Positions 1 to 10,379 of a stretch of DNA of 64,000 nt are shown piece after piece. The position numbers and the translations under genes were made by a program. Positions within the stretch are counted from its first letter, which is position 1, and every line of letters starts with the position of its first letter. Under the pieces are notes generated by a model. The model made no database searches. It was not told where the DNA came from and saw only the letters and a list, made by a program, of their open reading frames with translations. Origin of the DNA: Mobula hypostoma (taxonomy: Eukaryota); contig NC_086108.1 in assembly GCF_963921235.1 (NCBI RefSeq), positions 13,764,001 through 13,828,000 of the forward strand, given 5' to 3'.

Positions 1-200
1 GGACCAGGCCTCGAACTGAGCTTCTCCTGGGTTCGGCTTCGTGCTGCGATGCCGTCACCAGCAGAGGGAGCGGTTGCGGGGACGGACAGGGGGCGGGGGC
101 GGGGCAGGACTTCTCGTCGGCCGCCCGGGGTCTGATCCCGATCCCGACCCCGACCCCCCGCTCCCGGCTGTGGGGGGCGAGTGCTGATGGGATCAGTGAA
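1..200. promoter_or_regulatory. CpG-rich promoter-like segment with GC boxes and CTCF-like motif
   Basis: High GC/CpG relative to the rest of the window; tandem GGGGCGGGG boxes at 89-105; CCAGCAGAGGGAGC at 58-71 resembles the CTCF core. Confidence 0.55.
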
Positions 201-1825
201 CGTCTTGTTCTTGTAAATGGTGATTGCAGTCGCCATGAAACTTTAAAGTGCATTATTGCCACCTGCTGAGTTGGAGCGTGGAGCAAAGAGACAGGAAGTG
301 ATCCCACTAAATTCCTCCCCGAACAATGCTTTTCAGAAAGTCAAATACATATTATATACATTACGATGGTAGTGATAACCTAACAAACATGTTAAATTGC
401 GTCTGTCCCAAAGATCTCAGTTCAACAGCAATTGAATAGGTAAGACTCTCCCAACCATTGAGTACATCTACAGGAAACGTTGCCGTAGAAAAGCAGCATC
501 CAACATCGAAGATTCTCTCCACTCAGGCTATGCTATTTTCTCGCTGCTGTCATCAGGTAGAAAGTACAAGAGCCTCAGGACTTACAACATCAAGTTCAAG
601 AACAGTTACTACCCCTTGACCATCAGGCTCTTGAACAATGGGGGATAATTACACTCATTTAAGGACTTTTTTTCTTGTTAATTCATGCTCATTGTTTATT
701 GCTATTTAATCATATCTGCATTTGAACAGTTAGTTTACAGTTTTTGTTCTGTAGATTTGCTATGTCCACAGAAAAAGAATCTCCAGGTTGCCTGTGATGA
801 CATGTATGTACTCTGATAAGAAATTTTACTTTAAAGTTTTGAACCTTGAACTTTGTTTCCTTTGCACTTCTTAGGAACTGCATTTAAATAATATATGCTG
901 CACATATGCAGTCCATACAAATGCCCACATCCTGCATGTTAATTCTGAACAAGGAATTGTTCAACCTAGTATGTCCAGTATGTAAATGTTTATGTATAAC
1001 TTCTTCTTTCCTTTTATACTCATCTCTCAATTGAGTTCCCAGCATCCTCTAAATTTTATATAAATACCATTCTTTCTTTGCCTTATCCCAACTCTGTTGC
1101 CACAGTGAGCAAATAGACTTTTTAATTATGGCTTTCATTTCTCATTTATACAAAGGCAGCACAACATTTACGTCCTTAATTCTAAGTGATTGCTTGGCAA
1201 GAATGTCTGCCACCTCCTCTCCTTCAACCCCAACATGTGCAGGGAGCTGTAAGACATCTACACACAAGCCTGTGTGACTCTGCAGCCTCAACAGATGTTG
1301 TCCAATCTCAAGAAGAATATCTGGTCTACAATTTGAAGTACCTGTTAAAATAGATGTCAAAACCGAGAATGAATCAGAGCACAGAAGCTCATAATCAGAG
1401 TGTACTTCCTCGACCCATTCCAAGGCTAAGATGATATCAATATTCACATCTCGGATGTGAATATTGATACTTTCTCTGATATTCTTTTTTTAATAATCAC
1501 CTGAAACTTTGGAACATAGACAGAAACACCTGAATGATATGTCACTGGATCTTTTGAACCAGCTGTATAGATGTGTAAGGAGCCATAATATATGCTTTGC
1601 ATCTATTGCTGAATTACCTGTGCCATTGATATGCAATCATTCTTCATCTTGAAGGCTTAAATCAACCCAGGCAATGGTAAATACATGGAAGAGCGACAGA
1701 AAAGGGTACACTGGGACTATATTCTACATTAAACGACCCAAGATTTTGTACCCATTCAATTCTCATCCACCCAAAAATGCAGTGCTCACAACACTCTACT
1801 AATGTTACCAATATTGGACGACCCA
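200..1825 (-). mobile_element. Nimb/I-group LINE 3' fragment with RNase H domain (decayed, interrupted)
   Basis: ORF 1142-1447 has SDSFSVL...LPAHVGVEGEEVAD.LAK, an RNase H motif of I-group LINEs; 3' tail near 200-280 (CAGGTGGCAATAATGCAC...AAGAACAAG on -). Confidence 0.65.
437..850 (+). mobile_element. Rex1-like LINE 3' fragment nested in the Nimb-like element
   Basis: Sequence resembles the 3' ends of other Rex1-like copies here (e.g. 23600-23930, 39530-40030); TTGAAC tail. Confidence 0.5.
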
Positions 1826-1829
1826 TTGC

Positions 1830-2270
1830 TTCTGTACTTAGGAGACAGACACTGACTAAGAAGTGAGCTAAAGTGGCATCAACTTCATAGATCCTGTACA
1901 GATTACAGAGGAAGAAGTATTTACTGTCCTGAGGCAAATTAGAGTGGATAAATTCCCAGGGTCTGACAAAGTGTTCCCTTATACCCTGCAGGAGGCAAGT
2001 GCAGAAATTGCTGGGCCCCTGGCAGAGATACTTAAATCATCCTTAGCAACAGGAGAGGTACCAGAGGATTGGAGGATAGCCAATGTTGTTCCACTGTTCA
2101 AGAAAGGCTCTTAAAAATAAACCAGGAAATTATAGGCTGGTGAGCCTGACATCAGTAGAGGGAAAGTTATTGGAAGGTATTCTGAGAGACCAGGTATATA
2201 AGTATTTGGAAAGACATGGAGTGCTTAAGGATAGTTGGCATGGGTTCATGTGTGGTAGGTCATGTCTAAC
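1830..2270 (+). mobile_element. CR1 LINE ORF2 fragment, left part of the copy split by the HERO-like insertion
   Basis: KPGNYRLVSLTSVEGKLLE...HGFMCGRSCLT; continues at 5558. Confidence 0.85.
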
Positions 2271-2332
2271 CTTGTTACATACACTTTTTAGGGTGCATTC
2301 TCCAGTTACTTTATAAGGTAACCGTAACCTTC

Positions 2333-2456
2333 AGCCAGGAGCAGATGTCATCAGGTGGTTCCCAACCTCCACCGAGTGTTTCGACCCCTAACCACGACAC
2401 TCTACAGTTGGTGGGCTGGCAGTGGTGGCCAAATCACTGCCCATCTGCTCCTGGCT
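2333..2456 (-). ncRNA. Putative non-circularly permuted (pseudoknotted) hammerhead ribozyme
   Basis: On -: GAGUGUC(cut)-GUGGUU-AGGGGUC-GAAACACUC...AACCAC-CUGAUGA; stem III GAGUGU/ACACUC, stem I GUGGUU/AACCAC, 15-bp helix 2456-2442/2347-2333; all core nucleotides present. Confidence 0.75.
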
Positions 2457-5330
2457 TCCAGCTCCCCTCCTCTCGCCTACTCCAAATCCAACAAGAGGCT
2501 CATTCTGCTTCTTCCCCCATCCTACGAGCTGCTTGTTTTTTGCTCCTTTCGTCCAGGCCCATATCTGACAACAACCGCCATGCTGATTTGGCTGGGAAAC
2601 CTCTGCAGCCGATCTCCACAGGGAACAACCATGCCTGCCATCCCTTGTCTTTACACTCCTGCAGTAAGGGCTGGTACTTCAAGGTCTTTCTCTCGTGGGC
2701 CCCTTCCCATCCCTCCTCCCACGGCAGTCAACTCAACCAGAATTATTTTCTTGTCTTTGGTTGACCACAGTACAACGTCTGGGAGTTGGGTTGTGTGCAC
2801 CACTTCCGGGAACTGCAACCTCCTTCCCACATTGACCCTCATCTCCCAGGACCTGGCCGTTAGCAGCAGATTGGGCTTTGGTTGTTTGGTTACAAAAGTC
2901 CCAGCTCCCTCTTTGATGAAGGTGATGGCCTTCCTCAAATCTGTGCCAGCCGTCCTCTTCTTGCATCTGTCCCGCTCTAGTGTGTCAGCAAGAGCCAGAA
3001 GCACCTTATCATGGCACCACCTATACCGTCCTTGAGTTAGAGCTGTTTTACACCTGGACAGTATATGAGCCAGTGTCCCCTTTTGACCACAGAGCTTACA
3101 GTTTGGGTCCCCTCTCATCCCCCATGTGTACAGATGTAATGGCGAAAGAAGGGTGTCATACGCAAGAGGAAGGAAATACGGAAGGGCTCCAGTCTCCATA
3201 ACTCTGCCCATGAGATCTTGCGCTTAGGCAGATCCCATTCTGTCCAGGCACCCTGGGACCCTTGTTCCACTGCCTTTGAAATCTGCTTCTCTTCCTCACG
3301 GATCCGTACTTCTGCCTGTATCATGTCTCGCCTGTTCTTTATGCTTGCATTTCCCCACTTCTGGAAGTGAACTGAGCCGAGGCCTTGCCGTCTGACGCAG
3401 GGGTTGCTGATGATATCTCGCAGCTTCAGAAAACACACTGCCTCCTTCACAGTTGCGTGGGCTGCCCACTTGCGCCCAGATCTGGTTGTAACGCCTGCTT
3501 GCTTTACCAAGACGTCACTGGAATCTCTAAAGCTTAATAAAGCTCTGCATTTTGCCACCTTGAATTCCTCCACAACAGATGACAGGGGAAGCTGCAGTTG
3601 CCCAGAACAAATGTAGAGGCCCACTGAAGAGAAGCTTAGGGGAACTCCCAACCATCTCTGCAGGTGCTTGTTGGTTTTCCTCTCGATGCCCTCTACGACA
3701 GTCATGGGGAACTCATAAAGTGTGAAGAGCCAGAGAAGCCTGGGCGGAAGGCCGTATTGGTACAGCCAGGTCTTGAATTTACCGGGAAGTCCGAATTTGT
3801 CGATCTTCTTCAGCCATTTGTCTGTCTGCTTCACAGCATTGGTGACATTGGTCCCATCTGTCAGTGACACATTAAACCACTTCCCCAAGCATTTTATCGG
3901 GTTATCTTTGATGGAAGGGATGACCTCACCCTGAACCTGGAGGCTAAACTTGCTAGTAACTTTGCCCTTTCTGATCACCATACACCTGGACTTCTTGGCC
4001 TTGAAGGCCATCCTCACCCAAGTGGCTACATTACCCAGGGTATCCAATACCCATCTTGCTTCGACATGTGACACAGTTGTTATAGTGATGTCATCCATGA
4101 ACCCTCGTAGAGCCGGCTGAACAATGCCTGACTCCAGCATCCAGCGGGTTACATCTTCTGCTGCTGATAATAGGAGGTTCATTCCCATAATAAATAGGGT
4201 GGGGGAGATGGTGCACCCCGTTGGAATCCCCTTCTGGAGCTCCTGCCAACTAGTTGTGAAATGGGCTGATGTAAATCTGAGTTTGAACCCTCCTAGGTAG
4301 CTGGTGATTATGTCTCGAATAGCTACTGGGATGTAGTAGTGGTCAAATCCTTCTAGGATGAGGTCATGTGGGATAGACCCTAGGCGTTCGCGAGGTCTAA
4401 CCAGACAACTGTTAGGTCGCCTTTTTTCTGCTTGGCCTCATGGATCAAATAGCTAATCATTGAGGTGTGTTCCAGACACCCCGAAAAGCCTGGAATACCG
4501 CCTTTCTGGATGGATGTGTTGATATAGCGGTTCTGCGTCATGTAAGAAGTCAGCCTTCTTGCGAGCACAGAAAAGAAAATCTTACATTCCACATCCAGGA
4601 GAGAAATTGTCCTAAACTGAGCAATTGTGGAAGAAACCTCTTCCTTTAGAATAAAGCATCCCTCTGCCAATTTCCAACTTGATGGAATAGTAGCAATTGT
4701 GGAAGAAACCTCTTCCTTTAGAATAAAGCATCCCTCTGCCAATTTCCAACTTGATGGAATAGTACCTTTGGCCCAGATTTTGCTCATGACCTTCCACAGC
4801 CTCCGAAGAAGTTTTGGGCATTTCTTACACACCATATAAGGTATGCCGCTTGGGCCTGGGGCAGCTGATCCTTTAGCTTTCTGGATGATGTCCTGGATTT
4901 CCTGCCATGTAGGCCATTTGATCCTGTCTTTCCTTGACGAATGGATTGGGGTAGCCGAAGAGGAACTCACTAGGTCTGTTGTTTGGTGCTGAGGCGACTC
5001 AAGTGTGGAGAGATCTTCAGCTCCGTGGGGAGCTTCCTGGCTGGAATTCTCCTTCGTCTCACCGGACACTAAGTTCATGTGCTGCACTTGGGTCACCATT
5101 GATCCACATCTAGACTTACTCTAGTGTATCTTGAACCCTCTGATGTTTTTGCAGACTTTCCTGCAATGACGCCTCACCGTGAATTCCTCTCCGGTCAGTG
5201 TTGTTTGCTTTAGCTTCCTCGGAGTCGTGTTTTCTGTCCTGGCTGTTGCCGGTATGACCGTACTGTTGAGTCTCTCATCCTCCCCCTCTCTCGGGAGACT
5301 CTGGGGGTATTGCTCTTCGTGTTCAGTCGT
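2434..5330 (-). pseudogene. Disrupted single ORF of the HERO-like element (ZnF-RT-CCHC-RLE)
   Basis: Pieces 5121-5354, 4380-5099, 3115-4188, 2651-3211, 2500-2682, then ...SCWIWSRREEGSWKPGADGQ* ending at TGA 2436-2434; stops and frameshifts between pieces; 5' start approximate. Confidence 0.8.
4620..4763. repeat. Perfect 72-bp in-frame tandem duplication within the HERO-like RT
   Basis: 4620-4691 = 4692-4763; peptide TIPSSWKLAEGCFILKEEVSSTIA occurs twice. Confidence 0.95.
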
Positions 5331-5476
5331 AGCCTGAGCGGTGCCCTCTTGCAAGTGCTGCCCACAAGGTTACTAGCCTTGTGAGCCCGTGCCAGTCTTT
5401 CCTGGAGGTCAGCTGTCTCTCCAGCATCACCGACCTTCCTCGGTTGCCATCCAGTCTTTCCTGGAAGCCAATGGTA

Positions 5477-5557
5477 CTTGTTACATACACCTGTTAGGGT
5501 GCATTCTCCAGTTACCTTATAAGGTAACTGTAGCCTTCAGCCAGGAGCAGATGTCAT
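5477..5557 (-). repeat. 81-bp direct repeat of the element's 3' tail (2271-2351) at its 5' end
   Basis: Ungapped alignment, 76/81 identical. Confidence 0.95.
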
Positions 5558-6680
5558 AAAGTCTTATAAAGTCATTCAAGAAAGTTACCAGGAAAGTTGA
5601 TGAAGGCGAGGCAGTGAATGTTCTCTACATGGACTTTAGTAAGGCATTTGACAAGATCCCATGGGAATTTGGTCAAGAAGGTTCAGTTGCTTGGCATTCA
5701 AGATGAGGTAATAAATTGGATTAGACATTGGCTTTGTGGGAGAAGCCACAGAGTGGTAGTAGATGGTTTCCTCTCTGATGAAGGCCTACGGCAGAGATAG
5801 GTGCTGGGTCCATTGTTATTTGTCATCAATATCAATGATCTGAATGATAATGTGGTTAATTGGATCAGCAAATTTGCAGATGACACCAAGACTGGGGTGT
5901 AGTGGTCAGCGAGGAAGGCTATCATGGTTTGCAGTGGGATCTGGACCAGCTGGAAAAGTGGGCTGAAAAATGGCAGATGGAATTTAATACAGACAAATGC
6001 GAGGTTTTGTACTTCTGCAGGACAAACCAGGGTAGGTTTTACATAGTGAACGGTGGGGCACTGAGGAGTATGGTAGGACAAAGGGATCTGGGAATACAGA
6101 TCCATAATTTGTTGAAACTGGCGTCATAGGGAAATAGAGTCGTATAGAAAATTTCTGGTATATTGGCTTCATAAATCAAAGTATTGAGTGCAGGAGATGG
6201 GATGTGATGTTGAAATTGTATAAGATATTGGTGAGGCCTAATTTGGAGTATTGTGTGTATTTTTGGTCACCCACCTGCAGAAAAGATGTAAACAAGATTG
6301 AAAGAGTACAGAGAAAATTTTAAAGGATGTTACCAGGTGTAGAAGACAAGAATCATAAGGAAAGATTGAATAGGTTAGAATTTTATTCATTGGAATGTAG
6401 AAAACTGAGAAGAGATTTGATAGGGGTATGCAAATTTGAGGGGCAGAGATAGGGTAAATGCAAGCAGGCTCTTTCCACTGGGGTTGGGTGGGACAACAAC
6501 CGTAGGTCATGGGTTAAGGGTGAAAGTGAAAAAGTTGAAGGAGATCATGAGGGGAAACTTCTGTGGAATGGACTGCCAACACAAGTGGTGCATGCAGACT
6601 CGATATCAACATTTCAGAGAAGTTTGGATAGGTACATAGATCGTTGGGGATGTGGAGGGCTGTGGTCCCAATGCACACAC
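5558..6680 (+). mobile_element. CR1 LINE ORF2 fragment, right part
   Basis: YMDFSKAFDK, KFADDTK, LEKWAEKWQMEFN motifs. Confidence 0.85.
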
Positions 6681-8509
6681 TAGCTCTCCCACACCCCTCG
6701 GACTCCATACCACACCACATCTCAGGAAAGACATGAAGGTTTGGGAGAGGGACAGAGATTTGGTGAAATGATGACATTTATGGTTCTATTACTATTTATT
6801 ATTTATGGAGCAACTGTAATGAAAACCAATTTCCCCCAGGATTAATAAAGTATGACTATGACTATGACATAGGAGCAGAATTAGCTCATTAGGCCTATTG
6901 AGTCTCCTCTGCCACTTCACCATGGCTCATTTATTTTCCATCTCAACCCCAATCTCTTCCCATAGCCTTTGATGTCCTCACTAACAAAGAACCTTTCAAC
7001 CTCCAGTTTAACTACACCCAATGACTTGGTATCCACAGCTGCCTGTGACAATGTATTCCATAGATTTAAGACTCTCTGGCTAAAAATATTCCTGGTCCTC
7101 TTTGTCTAAAGGGTAGTCCTTGTACCCTGAGGCTTTGTCCTGTAATCCTTAGATTCTGCCACTATTGGAAACTTATCTAGGGCTTTCAATATTCAGTGGG
7201 TTTCAATGAGATTCTACCCCCCCCCCATACTTCTAAACACCAATGCCTACAGGTTCCTTAAGGATATTATACCCCAGGGGTGGTATTAAATGCACCCAAT
7301 GGCATGTGTCTCAAATAGCCTCTAACAACTAAGTCCAGCTCCTGGCCTTCACGTCCGGTGGAACCGTTTCTAGTGATAGGAGAAGGGGCAAAGGCAGGTT
7401 ATTGGCACTTAAAACCTGTCGCTTCGGGCAGATGAGACTCGTTAGCCAACTTGTTTCATCTGCCAACTTACAAATCATGAATGTGGATATTTCAAACAAT
7501 AATAATTCCAACACTGATCCCTGTGGTACACCACTAGTTACGGTCTTCCAGTCCCTAAAAAAAAATCCTCATAACCTCCATCTAATCAGCATCTGCAACA
7601 CTAGTTCTTGTCCACTCTATTATTTTTGCTCTGAGGAAAATAACCGGAGGTTTTTCAGTCTGGTATGATGGCTGATATCCCTCACACCGTCGGCCATCTC
7701 AGTAAAACTTTACTAAACTCACTGAAAACTTCACACCCTTGATTAAGTTGGTGAACACTATTGGATGCCGTGCTCCAGTATTTTATACAGGTTTGATATT
7801 ACTGTCCTGGATCTCTACCTTGTGCCAGTGCTTTTGAATTACAGCATCCCAAAGTTTGGAGTGTTCTAAAATTATTTATAAACTGCATTCAAAGTCCCCG
7901 GCAGTCTTGGTGGAAATTGATCTGTCCCTTCTACATCCTCTGTTCCCAGGATTTCACAGTGCTCCCAGGTGAAACAGCACTTCTTGCAATTGAGTATACT
8001 TCAGCCAGTGTTCACCATATGGTCTTGTCAGCACCTGAGAAACCATACAGGGGGGATAATTTTGCAGAACACCTCCATTCTGTCTGTATCACCTTTTACT
8101 TCAGTCTTCCGCACCATTCCCATTCAAATTTCTCTGTTCTGACCTTCAGCACTGGTTCATTAAAGTCCAAAATAAACTTGAAACTACCACCACAAGTGAG
8201 AAGCTTCTTAACCCCAATTCCATGTATAATCTTTCTCTAACTCTCCCTCTCCCTCTATCTCCCCTCCCCCTCCCCGTCCTCTCCCCTCCCTCCCCTCTCA
8301 CTCTCCTTCCTCACCCTCTTCTTCCCCCCTCCCACCCTCCCTCTCCCTCTACTCCTCCCTTTGGGTCACCATCCCTTTCCCTGACACCACCGTCTCTACC
8401 ACACCCAACTTCCTCTCACACTTGTCACTGACATTCTCTCTCTTTCTCCCAGTGCCACCTTCTCTCTCTCCCCCTCACCCAGGTGCATGCTCTCTCTATT
8501 TTACTTGGG

Positions 8510-8900
8510 GTCCATCCATAGCTCCCTGAGAGTGGCAACTCAATTAGATGAGGTGACAAAGAAGGCATATGGCGTGCATTGTTTGCCTTCATTGGTCACG
8601 GCATCGAGTATAAAAGTCAGGAAGTCAGGTTGCAGCTGCATGAAACATTAGTTAGGCTGCATTTTATGTTTTGTGTGCAGTTCTAGTTACCACATTACAG
8701 GAAGGATGTGGAGGCTTCAGCAAGGGTGCAGAAGATTTAACCAGGATTCGGTCTGGATTAGCGAGCATGAGCGTGAAGGATAGGCTGTGCAGACCTGGTT
8801 TGTTTTCTTTGAAGCATCAGAGACCGAGAGGAGGCCCAAGAGAAGTTTCTAAAATGATGGGAAACATAGATTGGTTATACATTCAGAATCCTTGTCCCAC
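8510..8900 (+). mobile_element. Decayed CR1 3' fragment
   Basis: Similar to the CR1 C-terminus (CVQF..PHYRKDV). Confidence 0.6.
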
Positions 8901-9179
8901 AGTCTGTCAAACAGCAGAGGGTAAAGTTCAACCTAAAAGAGTGTAGCAGGGGAACAAACACTTTGAACCACAGTGTCTGGGGCAAAAACAATGCAGTATT
9001 AAACTAATGTTCTTATTCATGCACAGGACCCACCTCCTATTCAGTTCATTCATGTGTCTAGCAACCTTTTAAACACCACTGTATGCAGGGATAGAGGGAC
9101 ATAGATCATAAGCAGGTAGATGTTTGGCACAGTCATATTGGATGTAAGTGCCTAGTGCTGTGTTGCACTGTTCTGTTTT

Positions 9180-9510
9180 CTCCCCACAATTTCACATACT
9201 CTCCCCTAGTATAACTCTCTTTCTTCCTCTGTGTGTGTATGTCTTGCTCTTTCCTTTTCTTTCTCTCCCTCCCTTTCTCTCACTGTCCTGCCTCTCTTTC
9301 TCATTTCTCCCTCTCATTCCTCTCTCGATCTGCCCACTCTTTTCACTGCTCTGTGCGATTCCTCTCTTTCATACTCCTCCCTCCCTTGCTCTCAACCTGT
9401 GCCTTTCTTGTCATTTCTCTCTCCCCCTCCTTCCATCTCTCTTACTCACACTCCCCCATTCTATTTTTCTCCCTCTGCCTCCTTCTCTCACCCTCTTCCC
9501 ACACATTGTA
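9180..9510. repeat. CT-rich low-complexity tract (similar tracts at 8230-8500 and 15045-15240)
   Basis: Polypyrimidine composition. Confidence 0.8.
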
Positions 9511-10379
9511 CACTCACAGATCATTGGTTGTCCCATGCCTGTCAGTTGCCTGTGCCAGTTGTGTTTCTAATGCAGACCTCAACACCTACACAATGCACAG
9601 ACTCCAACACCTGCAAACTCTGAACTGCTCTTTAGTGCAGTCAATTTACAAGCTGCTTCTGTTGCAAGCTGAGTGCTAACAGGAAGAATTAACCTCTGAC
9701 CTCCCACTGCGCACTCTCTGTTCCAGAATGCGTATATTACTTTGTTCTACTCTAGCATCAACTCCACTTCATTGGGTCGGTGTTTGCCACAAATTAATAT
9801 GTCTGTGGCGTTCAAGAAAGTGGTAAAATTTACCAATTAAATTCATAATATGTTTTATTATTGTCACATGTACCAAGGCACAATGAATACTTCTGTTGCA
9901 TGCTGTTCATTCATTACAGCAGTGCATTGAGATAGTACAAGGTGAGCAGTTACAGAGGGAGTGACGTGCAGCTAAACAATAAGGTATAGAACAAGATAGA
10001 TTATGAGATAAACAGTGCATTCTTATCGTACTACGGAACTGTTTAATAGTCTTATAAAAGCAGGACAGAAGCTGTCCTTGAGTATGCTGGTATATAGTGT
10101 CTAGCTTCTGTTTTTTCTGCCTAATTGGAGGGGGTGAAATGAGAATATCTGGAATGGGTGGGGTCTTTGCCTGTACTGGTTGCTTTACTAAGTCAGAGAG
10201 AAGTAGAGACAGCGTCCATGGATGGGAGGCTGGCTTCTGTACTATGCTGAACTGTGTCCACAACGCCTTGCAGTTTCTTGCAATGACGTGTAGAGCAGTT
10301 ACCATACCAAGCCATGATACCTCTGGATTAGATTCTTTCCATGATGCATCAATAAAAATTGGTGAAGGTCAAAGATTAG

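Follow-up and report, generated by a model that had tools for sequence, protein, structure and literature searches.

The stretch of DNA analysed here, hereafter the window, comprises 64,000 nt of the Mobula hypostoma assembly GCF_963921235.1 (NC_086108.1:13,764,001-13,828,000) and carries, on its minus strand, a retrotransposon copy with a hammerhead-like motif at 2333-2456. The element body (2434..5476, minus strand) consists of a 5' region and a single ORF, broken by stops and frameshifts, with a reverse transcriptase (RT), a CCHC knuckle and a restriction-like endonuclease (RLE) domain. The motif straddles the ORF stop codon (TGA, 2436-2434) and is followed by a tail (2271..2332) that runs to the fixed 3' end of inserted copies at 2271, 125 nt past the predicted cut and presumably the point at which the RT is primed. 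The 5' end of the window copy bears a direct repeat of its own 3' end, 81-86 nt long; the element's last 81 nt are repeated at 5477..5557 on the same strand, a partial tandem without room for an entire second ribozyme. The first-pass annotation of this DNA had overlooked the 5' terminal repeat and the partial tandems described below, both of which bear on function. In a search with the 3' end, the best 40 of 1,866 candidates were scored and 30 were fetched; these were 94-96% identical, and all 30 ended at the equivalent of 2271. The window copy is a dead element. Its RT region includes a perfect 72-nt in-frame tandem duplication (4620-4763), and its flanks (1142-2114 and 5700-6130) are fragments of other LINE families, the peptides of which we take to be RNase H-like and CR1-like.

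Hero elements are described, in the passages covered of PMC9004415, PMC13580325 and PMC7650587, as dispersed copies with a single ORF containing RT and restriction-like endonuclease, and as occurring in fish, lancelet and marine invertebrates. The window ORF matched RVT_1 (E=6e-11), zf-RVT remaining below the cut-off, and shows the Hero arrangement of one ORF with RT, CCHC knuckle and C-terminal restriction-like endonuclease. Its homologues (120 of 187 listed) are 42-77% identical and belong to teleosts, lancelets and bivalves, which matches the Hero host range, and its copies lie in unrelated flanks with no fixed target. The C-terminus is of RLE type with an RxD...ELTVPWE motif, which we read as the RLE motif. 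The element protein gave no match to a GIY-YIG domain, and neither of the features that define Penelope elements, a GIY-YIG endonuclease and a telomerase-like RT, was found. It is thus highly probable that the host is a Hero-clade RLE non-LTR retrotransposon, as the first-pass annotation had proposed, the name itself being our assignment from the host range.

Read 5' to 3' on the minus strand, the motif begins with the 5' strand of P1 (2442..2456), made up of the final ORF codons, and continues with the P2 hairpin (2418..2441, paired 2441-2435/2424-2418, with the stop codon inside it), the 10.x strand of stem II (2413..2417), one base, the 5' strand of P3, the helix of stem I-II interaction (2406..2411), three bases, and the 16.x strand of stem III (2402-2397) with N17 (2396; together 2396..2402). 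The predicted cut between 2396 and 2395 is followed by the 1.x strand of stem I (2390..2395), a short linker, the 11.x strand of stem II, GGGUC (2383..2387), and G12 A13 A14 running into the 15.x strand of stem III (together 2374..2382, with GAAA at 2382-2379 and the 15.x strand at 2379-2374). After six further bases come the 3' strand of P3 (2362..2367), 0-2 bases, the 2.x strand of stem I (2355..2360), the core segment C3-A9, CUGAUGA (2348..2354), and, immediately 3' of A9, the 3' strand of P1 (2333..2347). The P1 strands (2456-2442/2347-2333) form a perfect 15-bp inverted repeat in the window copy. P2 adjoins both P1 and stem II directly, and the path from A9 through P1 and P2 to G10.1 therefore holds no unpaired base. 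Judged by sequence, a perfect four-way junction results from P1, P2, stem II and the core, with P1 as one arm, and we infer that in the active conformer stem II is stacked on the core and P1 on P2.

All strands listed in the first-pass annotation were recovered at their minus-strand coordinates when checked against the sequence, the 15-bp helix being perfect, and the hammerhead core that it claimed was confirmed: a core-only descriptor (cut site, GAAA and CUGANGA in this order, with stems I and III of 5 bp each) gave one match in the window and none in 200 dinucleotide shuffles of it. Its proposal that the 15-bp helix may replace stem II was not upheld. The true stem II is 2417-2413/2387-2383, the supposed linker GGGUC is its 11.x strand, and the segments CCAACU and GGUUGG constitute the stem I-II interaction helix. 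The substitution had been suggested because the bases following A9 and those preceding GAAA do not pair in the window copy. An early idea of GUC:GAC pairing overlapping G8-A9 was likewise dropped once the real 10.x strand had been identified.

The base at 2417 is A in the window copy and G10.1 in the family. In column 2417, family A contained G in 79 and A in 30 of 110 copies, and the older family B contained G in 33 of 34; A at this position reads as CpG decay of G10.1. With G at 2417, as in most copies of families A and B, 2417-2413 pairs with 2387-2383, restoring G10.1-C11.1. The full model, when allowed at most one mismatch per helix, gave one match in the window and none in 100 shuffles. 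The strict full model does not match the window copy, owing to the A at 2417, and an R10.1-Y11.1 pair was not found in this copy itself. An Rfam scan of window positions 1-10000 returned no hammerhead match at E<=5, as expected because the strand order is permuted. The 124-nt stretch folded 5.0 standard deviations better than its own shuffles, chiefly via P1 and P2, and nested minimum-energy folds formed P1 and P2 and left the core unformed. With A.C at 10.1-11.1 and a predicted minimum-energy fold that breaks the core, the ribozyme of the window copy is probably impaired.

Eight families of the element (A, B, D, E, F, G, H and I) were compared, all from one genome (3.48 Gb) that was queried with distant protein ends and motif variants. 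The rows kept after anchoring and duplicate removal were 28/30 for family A, 21/30 for B, 9/12 for D, 24/24 for E, 16/20 for F, 10/20 for G, 17/17 for H (sampled at 17 of 20 loci) and 19/20 for I. Covariation in related elements, on which the first-pass annotation had made its reading depend, was evident: over the eight family majorities, 23 of 30 pairs changed on both sides and only 1 of 240 cells was broken. The double-changed pairs were distributed over stem I (5/5), stem II (4/5), stem III (2/5), P3 (3/5), the junction-proximal pairs of P1 (3/3) and P2 (5/6), in addition to the 3-8 core pair. The sole broken cell is a U.C in stem III, carried by the majority of the sampled family E copies. 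It should be stressed that these 23 double changes are not independent events, the families being kin from one genome, and that they represent three or four independent sets of stems. Identity is 46-53% between the C-terminal domains of A, E, H and I, and 44-47% between the RTs of A and E; in a midpoint-rooted tree of 51 protein ends, A/B stood opposite D/E with bivalve and lancelet proteins between them, the deep nodes being weakly supported.

GAAA, U4 G5 A6 and A9 were invariant in the eight family majorities, and N7 was free (A in family E). N17 was C, A or U in these majorities and never G, which supports the placement of the cut between 2396 and 2395 by the first-pass annotation; in 80 A/B copies the counts at N17 were C63, A9, U8 and G0. 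In family I, 18 of 19 copies have U3-A8 in place of C3-G8; this core covariation has been described for hammerheads (PMC4209133, in the part covered). The hammerhead core (C3-A9, G12 A13 A14, A15.1-U16.1 and an N17 other than G) was present in all eight majorities, one of them with U3-A8. G10.1 was also present in all eight, with 10.1-11.1 being G-C in seven families and G.U in H; the stem I-II contact was present as the P3 helix, and P1 after A9 and P2 before G10.1 were found in 8/8 families. Spacing was near-fixed, with 21-22 nt from G10.1 to the cut and 27-29 nt from G12 to position 3.

An alignment of 13 real copies, including the metagenome locus L092, had 95.8% of its cells paired and 18 of 33 pairs double-changed (7 of 9 in P1), with stem I omitted because MAFFT misaligned it by one column between family groups; stem I was counted in the motif-anchored family comparisons. 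The covariation score of this alignment was 0.589 against 0.249±0.022 in shuffles, none of 500 shuffles scoring as high, and slid controls were 28-45% paired. The number of double-changed pairs was reached by 24 of 500 shuffles, and that of further pair types by 437 of 500.

An intact core together with the first four pairs of stems I-III was found in 11 of 28 family A copies. Outside the genome, the motif was present in decayed form in L091 and L092, two of three loci on metagenome contigs (the third, L093, ends before the 3' end), and in short contig ends from other runs, which showed GUA triplets and one-sided stem changes and, in one RNA-run contig, a change of U16.1 to C; four such runs, all consisting of contigs, contained neither joints nor ends at the motif. 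Prokaryote genome records contributed four loci, and the motif was absent by eye in the two with a 3' end, L126 and L128 (30-33% identity); these RLE retrotransposon fragments (L125, L126, L127 and L128) are most likely eukaryotic contamination. Viral contigs yielded 1 weak and 0 protein loci, and their 0 and 18 pattern matches were due to chance. The tail also contains a hairpin (window 2305-2322, minus strand) with a 6-bp stem in the family majority; the stem is kept in families A and B while the loop changes, which makes it a candidate binding site for the element protein. A more decayed relative of families A/B, L170, has an internal deletion across the cut.

The motif is almost certainly a complete hammerhead, having stems I, II and III plus a I-II helix in the SGC/CSG/GCS cyclic order, whose ends would leave through a two-helix insert at A9/G10.1. 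Its strand order (II-a, S, G, I-b/CUGANGA) does not match the circular order C-G-S, without core pseudoknot, of types I, II and III; the pseudoknotted, non-circular order recognised in the first-pass annotation was thus confirmed. Eckert et al. 2023 described non-circularly permuted hammerheads of type SGC (HRIMA-1) and type CSG from metatranscriptomes and metagenomes (PMC10085705). In the passages covered of that paper, these resemble the present motif in the cyclic order of cut site, GAAA and CUGANGA, the two core pseudoknots, the full core, the short linker between stems I and II, and a helix joining the far sides of these two stems. They differ from it (PMC10085705) in that the Hero motif has a two-helix domain, with both RNA ends, between A9 and G10.1, and has both other block links closed. 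In the hammerheads of Eckert et al., no more than 1-2 inserted bases separate CUGANGA from stem II ('block C'), and the search patterns demand CUGAUGAG or CUGAUGAUG (PMC10085705, in the part covered); a single inserted base at 9/10.1 is known in natural hammerheads (PMC4209133; SGC-1 oligos, PMC10085705; passages covered). The chain opening seen in our alignments lies within block C, deemed unbreakable by the discoverers of the SGC/CSG class. The comparison with permuted-hammerhead models that the first-pass annotation had called for thus gave agreement in cyclic order and disagreement in where the chain is open. What is new here is the connectivity and the host; the cyclic order itself is that of the known SGC/CSG class.

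A full-text literature search turned up no paper that describes Hero elements with a ribozyme, a non-circular hammerhead in the genome of a eukaryote, or helices that are inserted at 9/10.1. Weinberg et al. 2015 reportedly found hammerhead variants with extra helices, which could bear on the novelty of the insert. The passages covered of PMC13725137, PMC10162972, PMC6155905, PMC7229834, PMC13580325, PMC7650587 and PMC5678591 added no such report, and those of the Hero literature (PMC9004415, PMC13580325, PMC7650587) mention neither a ribozyme nor a terminal repeat.

Inserted copies end 85-125 nt downstream of the predicted cut with the cut site intact, and more than 99% of copies read through this site. 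Pattern searches were directed at copies with a 5' end near the predicted cut. For families D-G, 50 of 51 matches were inspected and 10 proved to be true truncations within -8..+7, the rest being internal deletions, decayed copies and chance; six of the ten fell at -3..+1 (one with a mismatch), none at -8..-4 and four at +3..+7. Four of 12 matches in A/B were true truncations (three at -2..+1, one at +2), and none of the four matches in H was one. The combined pile-up of 5' ends at the cut had p ~0.013 if microhomology was allowed for, a choice made once the data were known, and p=0.14 when restricted to strict +1; the 5'-end signal at the cut is weak. Copies starting at the cut amounted to ~0.4% of 3,329 anchor matches, at an assumed detection rate of one half. 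Short solo copies were seen whose start coincides with the cut or is no more than 3 nt away (L162, L164, L168, L236, L242, L244, L250 and L263), as were two near-full-length copies starting at or one base after it (L032 and L160). Most copies starting at the cut, being short, fit RNA that was cut and left unjoined. Internal deletions ending at or beside the cut, often with short microhomologies, were seen in L248, L258, L261, L265, L272, L163 and L169; such deletions could reflect template switching at a nicked site. We regard it as very likely that the RNA of active elements would be cut site-specifically after N17.

The 5' regions of family A were examined at the best 30 of 40 scored loci out of 302 candidates, of which L047 and L050 look duplicated, leaving 29. 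In 25 of these 29 loci the sequence continued upstream into the element's own 3' end: four began at the junction, eight reached 15-83 nt upstream, one began at the predicted cut and 16 beyond it, and a whole second ribozyme lay upstream in 13. Of 20 tandem junctions, 19 were seamless and alike in length and sequence, and short tail repeats occurred at none of the 20 as against 27 of 65 free ends. The free 3' ends lie in unrelated sequence. In family E, upstream repeats of 216, 294 and 1,610 nt were found (L281, L283 and L391), the long partial tandem of 1,610 nt being that of L283, and the same layout was seen in family F, in family I (a 249-nt upstream repeat in L392, one of six loci fetched) and in the metagenome locus L092. 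A suspected tandem trimer resolved into a single unit carrying a 294-nt repeat and, apart from it, a truncated copy. Target-site duplications were mostly absent, exceeding 7 nt in 2 of 46 copies and measuring at most 7 nt in 44. The upstream pieces were much shorter than ordinary copies. The drop-off of 5' ends in the second round was, per 100 nt with rising distance, 0.57, 0.37, 0.27, 0.18 and 0.09, and in the first pass 0.05-0.08 (26 unselected copies; small numbers). Four 5' ends (window 5557, L034, L049 and L092; that is, 3 of the 29 plus L092) fall at equivalents of 2349-2353, inside CUGAUGA just past P1, possibly reflecting RT stalling at the pseudoknot. Long or short inverted repeats occur in the flanks of L291, L285, L286 and L288.

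The relation of the motif to the ORF differs between families. P1a is coding in A, B, D and H, and the ORF stops just before P1a in E and I. In most families P1 and P2 share sequence with the final codons and the stop, and for this reason folding of the ribozyme could, speculatively, be gated by translation. A near-intact family E copy, L281:1507-5005, has a frame of 1166 aa; the upstream terminal repeat supplies the first AUG of this frame, and the start therefore exists only across the tail-to-5' junction, and in family A an equivalent AUG is followed by a stop. Near the ORF end of family I, L393:3737-4466 holds ~11 copies of a 65-66-nt tandem repeat, which is also found, in variable copy number, in L395 and L397.

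As the inserted copies keep the cut site intact, their template was either uncut or rejoined there, and copies longer than a unit with seamless joints call for a template without ends. We consider it reasonably likely that the Hero element would replicate through a ribozyme-made circle, internally primed and at times copied for more than one turn. Read-through transcription would yield the RNA of a longer-than-unit copy, from which two ribozymes would excise an RNA of exact unit length, and its ends (2',3'-cyclic phosphate and 5'-OH) would be joined by the ribozyme or by a host ligase. The RT-RLE protein would then start target-primed reverse transcription from a fixed position inside the RNA that lies 85-125 nt downstream of the cut, and the RT would copy across the rejoined cut site, sometimes continuing beyond one turn. 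Such copying would make the partial tandems and renew master copies with two ribozymes; the RT would meet its own cDNA in the second round, which would give the faster drop-off, and a cut RNA that stayed linear would yield no more than a short, dead-end copy with its start at the cut. For Penelope elements a similar circle model has already been proposed (PMC4209133; review PMC6765202; passages covered).

The ribozyme may instead be active on a template that stays linear, trimming or limiting read-through RNA while uncut RNA is copied and the tandems arise by end-to-end template jumping of an R2-type RT; its role would then be 5' processing, translation start or the destruction of excess RNA. 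The R2 RT has reportedly been found to copy across non-continuous templates. The four of 29 full-length copies that begin at the junction fit a linear RNA starting there, L032 and L160 are near-full-length with starts at or one base after the cut, and cleavage as slow as that of SGC ribozymes, 0.007-0.19 per min (PMC10085705, in the part covered), would leave uncut RNA. Jumping is, however, expected to affect a minority of copies and to leave ragged joints, whereas 25 of 29 loci continue upstream, 19 of 20 joints are seamless and tail repeats are missing; moreover, with neither a circle nor a jump, successive generations could only shorten the upstream repeat. We therefore regard a linear template as rather unlikely.

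The tandems could also arise if new 5'-truncated copies inserted exactly at the 5' end of an existing copy (self-targeting), with the ribozyme freeing the element RNA from such co-transcripts. RLE elements are often site-specific, and the upstream pieces do have variable, 5'-truncated ends. This is nevertheless improbable, as the free 3' ends sit in unrelated sequence, the tail repeats of 27 of 65 free ends are absent from all 20 junctions, and the upstream pieces are much shorter than ordinary copies. We give equally little credence to the motif being a hammerhead relic that has lost cutting and is kept as a protein-binding or priming structure. Such a relic would agree with the read-through of the site in more than 99% of copies, with the stem III mismatch of the abundant family E and with the G.U at 10.1-11.1 in H, but the catalytic positions are invariant in eight families while the stems turn over, and an N17 that avoids G, a free N7 and a C3-G8 pair that covaries to U3-A8 form the pattern of selection on catalysis. 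Finally, a fold with the 15-bp helix in the place of stem II and with GGGUC as a mere linker can hardly be correct: P1 does lie directly after A9 in all families and the window copy has A at 2417, but stem II covaries at 4 of 5 pairs, G10.1 is kept in all eight families, and a stack of P1 on the core is possible only as an inactive conformer of the junction.

The element modelled here as replicating through a circle can be compared with three known systems, in the passages covered of the papers cited. Like the Hero element, Penelope elements with pseudo-LTR hammerheads (PMC4209133) are autonomous retrotransposons with a hammerhead in terminal direct repeats and with partial head-to-tail tandems, for which a circle and more-than-unit reverse transcription have been proposed; they also share the U3-A8 variant and the tolerance of a base between 9 and 10.1. 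They have a GIY-YIG nuclease, a telomerase-like RT and minimal type I hammerheads thought to dimerise (PMC4209133), whereas the Hero element, an RLE LINE, carries a hammerhead that is complete, monomeric and doubly pseudoknotted. Animal non-LTR retrozymes (PMC7229834) also consist of hammerhead-bearing tandem units, with circular RNA intermediates, the circle being only proposed for Hero; unlike Hero, with its own RT and nuclease and a unit of ~3.5 kb, they are non-autonomous, a few hundred bases long and equipped with type I hammerheads. Like Hero, R2 (PMC6765202) belongs to the RLE non-LTR elements, and it leaves its co-transcript by means of a self-cleaving ribozyme. In R2/L1Tc (PMC6765202) this is a 5' HDV fold present in one copy, with a linear template primed at the 3' end, unlike the hammerhead at the Hero ORF stop and the inserted copies that read through the cut.

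If our interpretation is true, no non-circularly permuted hammerhead with an evident job would have been known from a eukaryotic genome before this one. The hammerhead core can open at A9/G10.1 via a four-way junction, a connection excluded by the design of published searches, and many further hammerheads opened at this point may have been missed; the junction also offers a new place of attachment for sensor domains. The circle model of Penelope-type tandems, long proposed and unproven, could be tested cleanly on this R2-related element, whose ribozyme is simple and monomeric and of which near-intact copies exist (L281). RLE elements are under development as tools for gene insertion, and one with priming inside a circular RNA would, if true, be directly relevant. 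More tentatively, and with somewhat less than even confidence, we suggest that an ancient RLE LINE clade (Hero and its kin in fish, lancelet and molluscs) could replicate via a circle made by a seventh, undescribed hammerhead connectivity, the junction of which would serve as a translation-gated switch, with the RT primed inside the circle. Priming inside a circle, and not at the 3' end of the RNA, would contradict the usual view of how target-primed reverse transcription works in this group.
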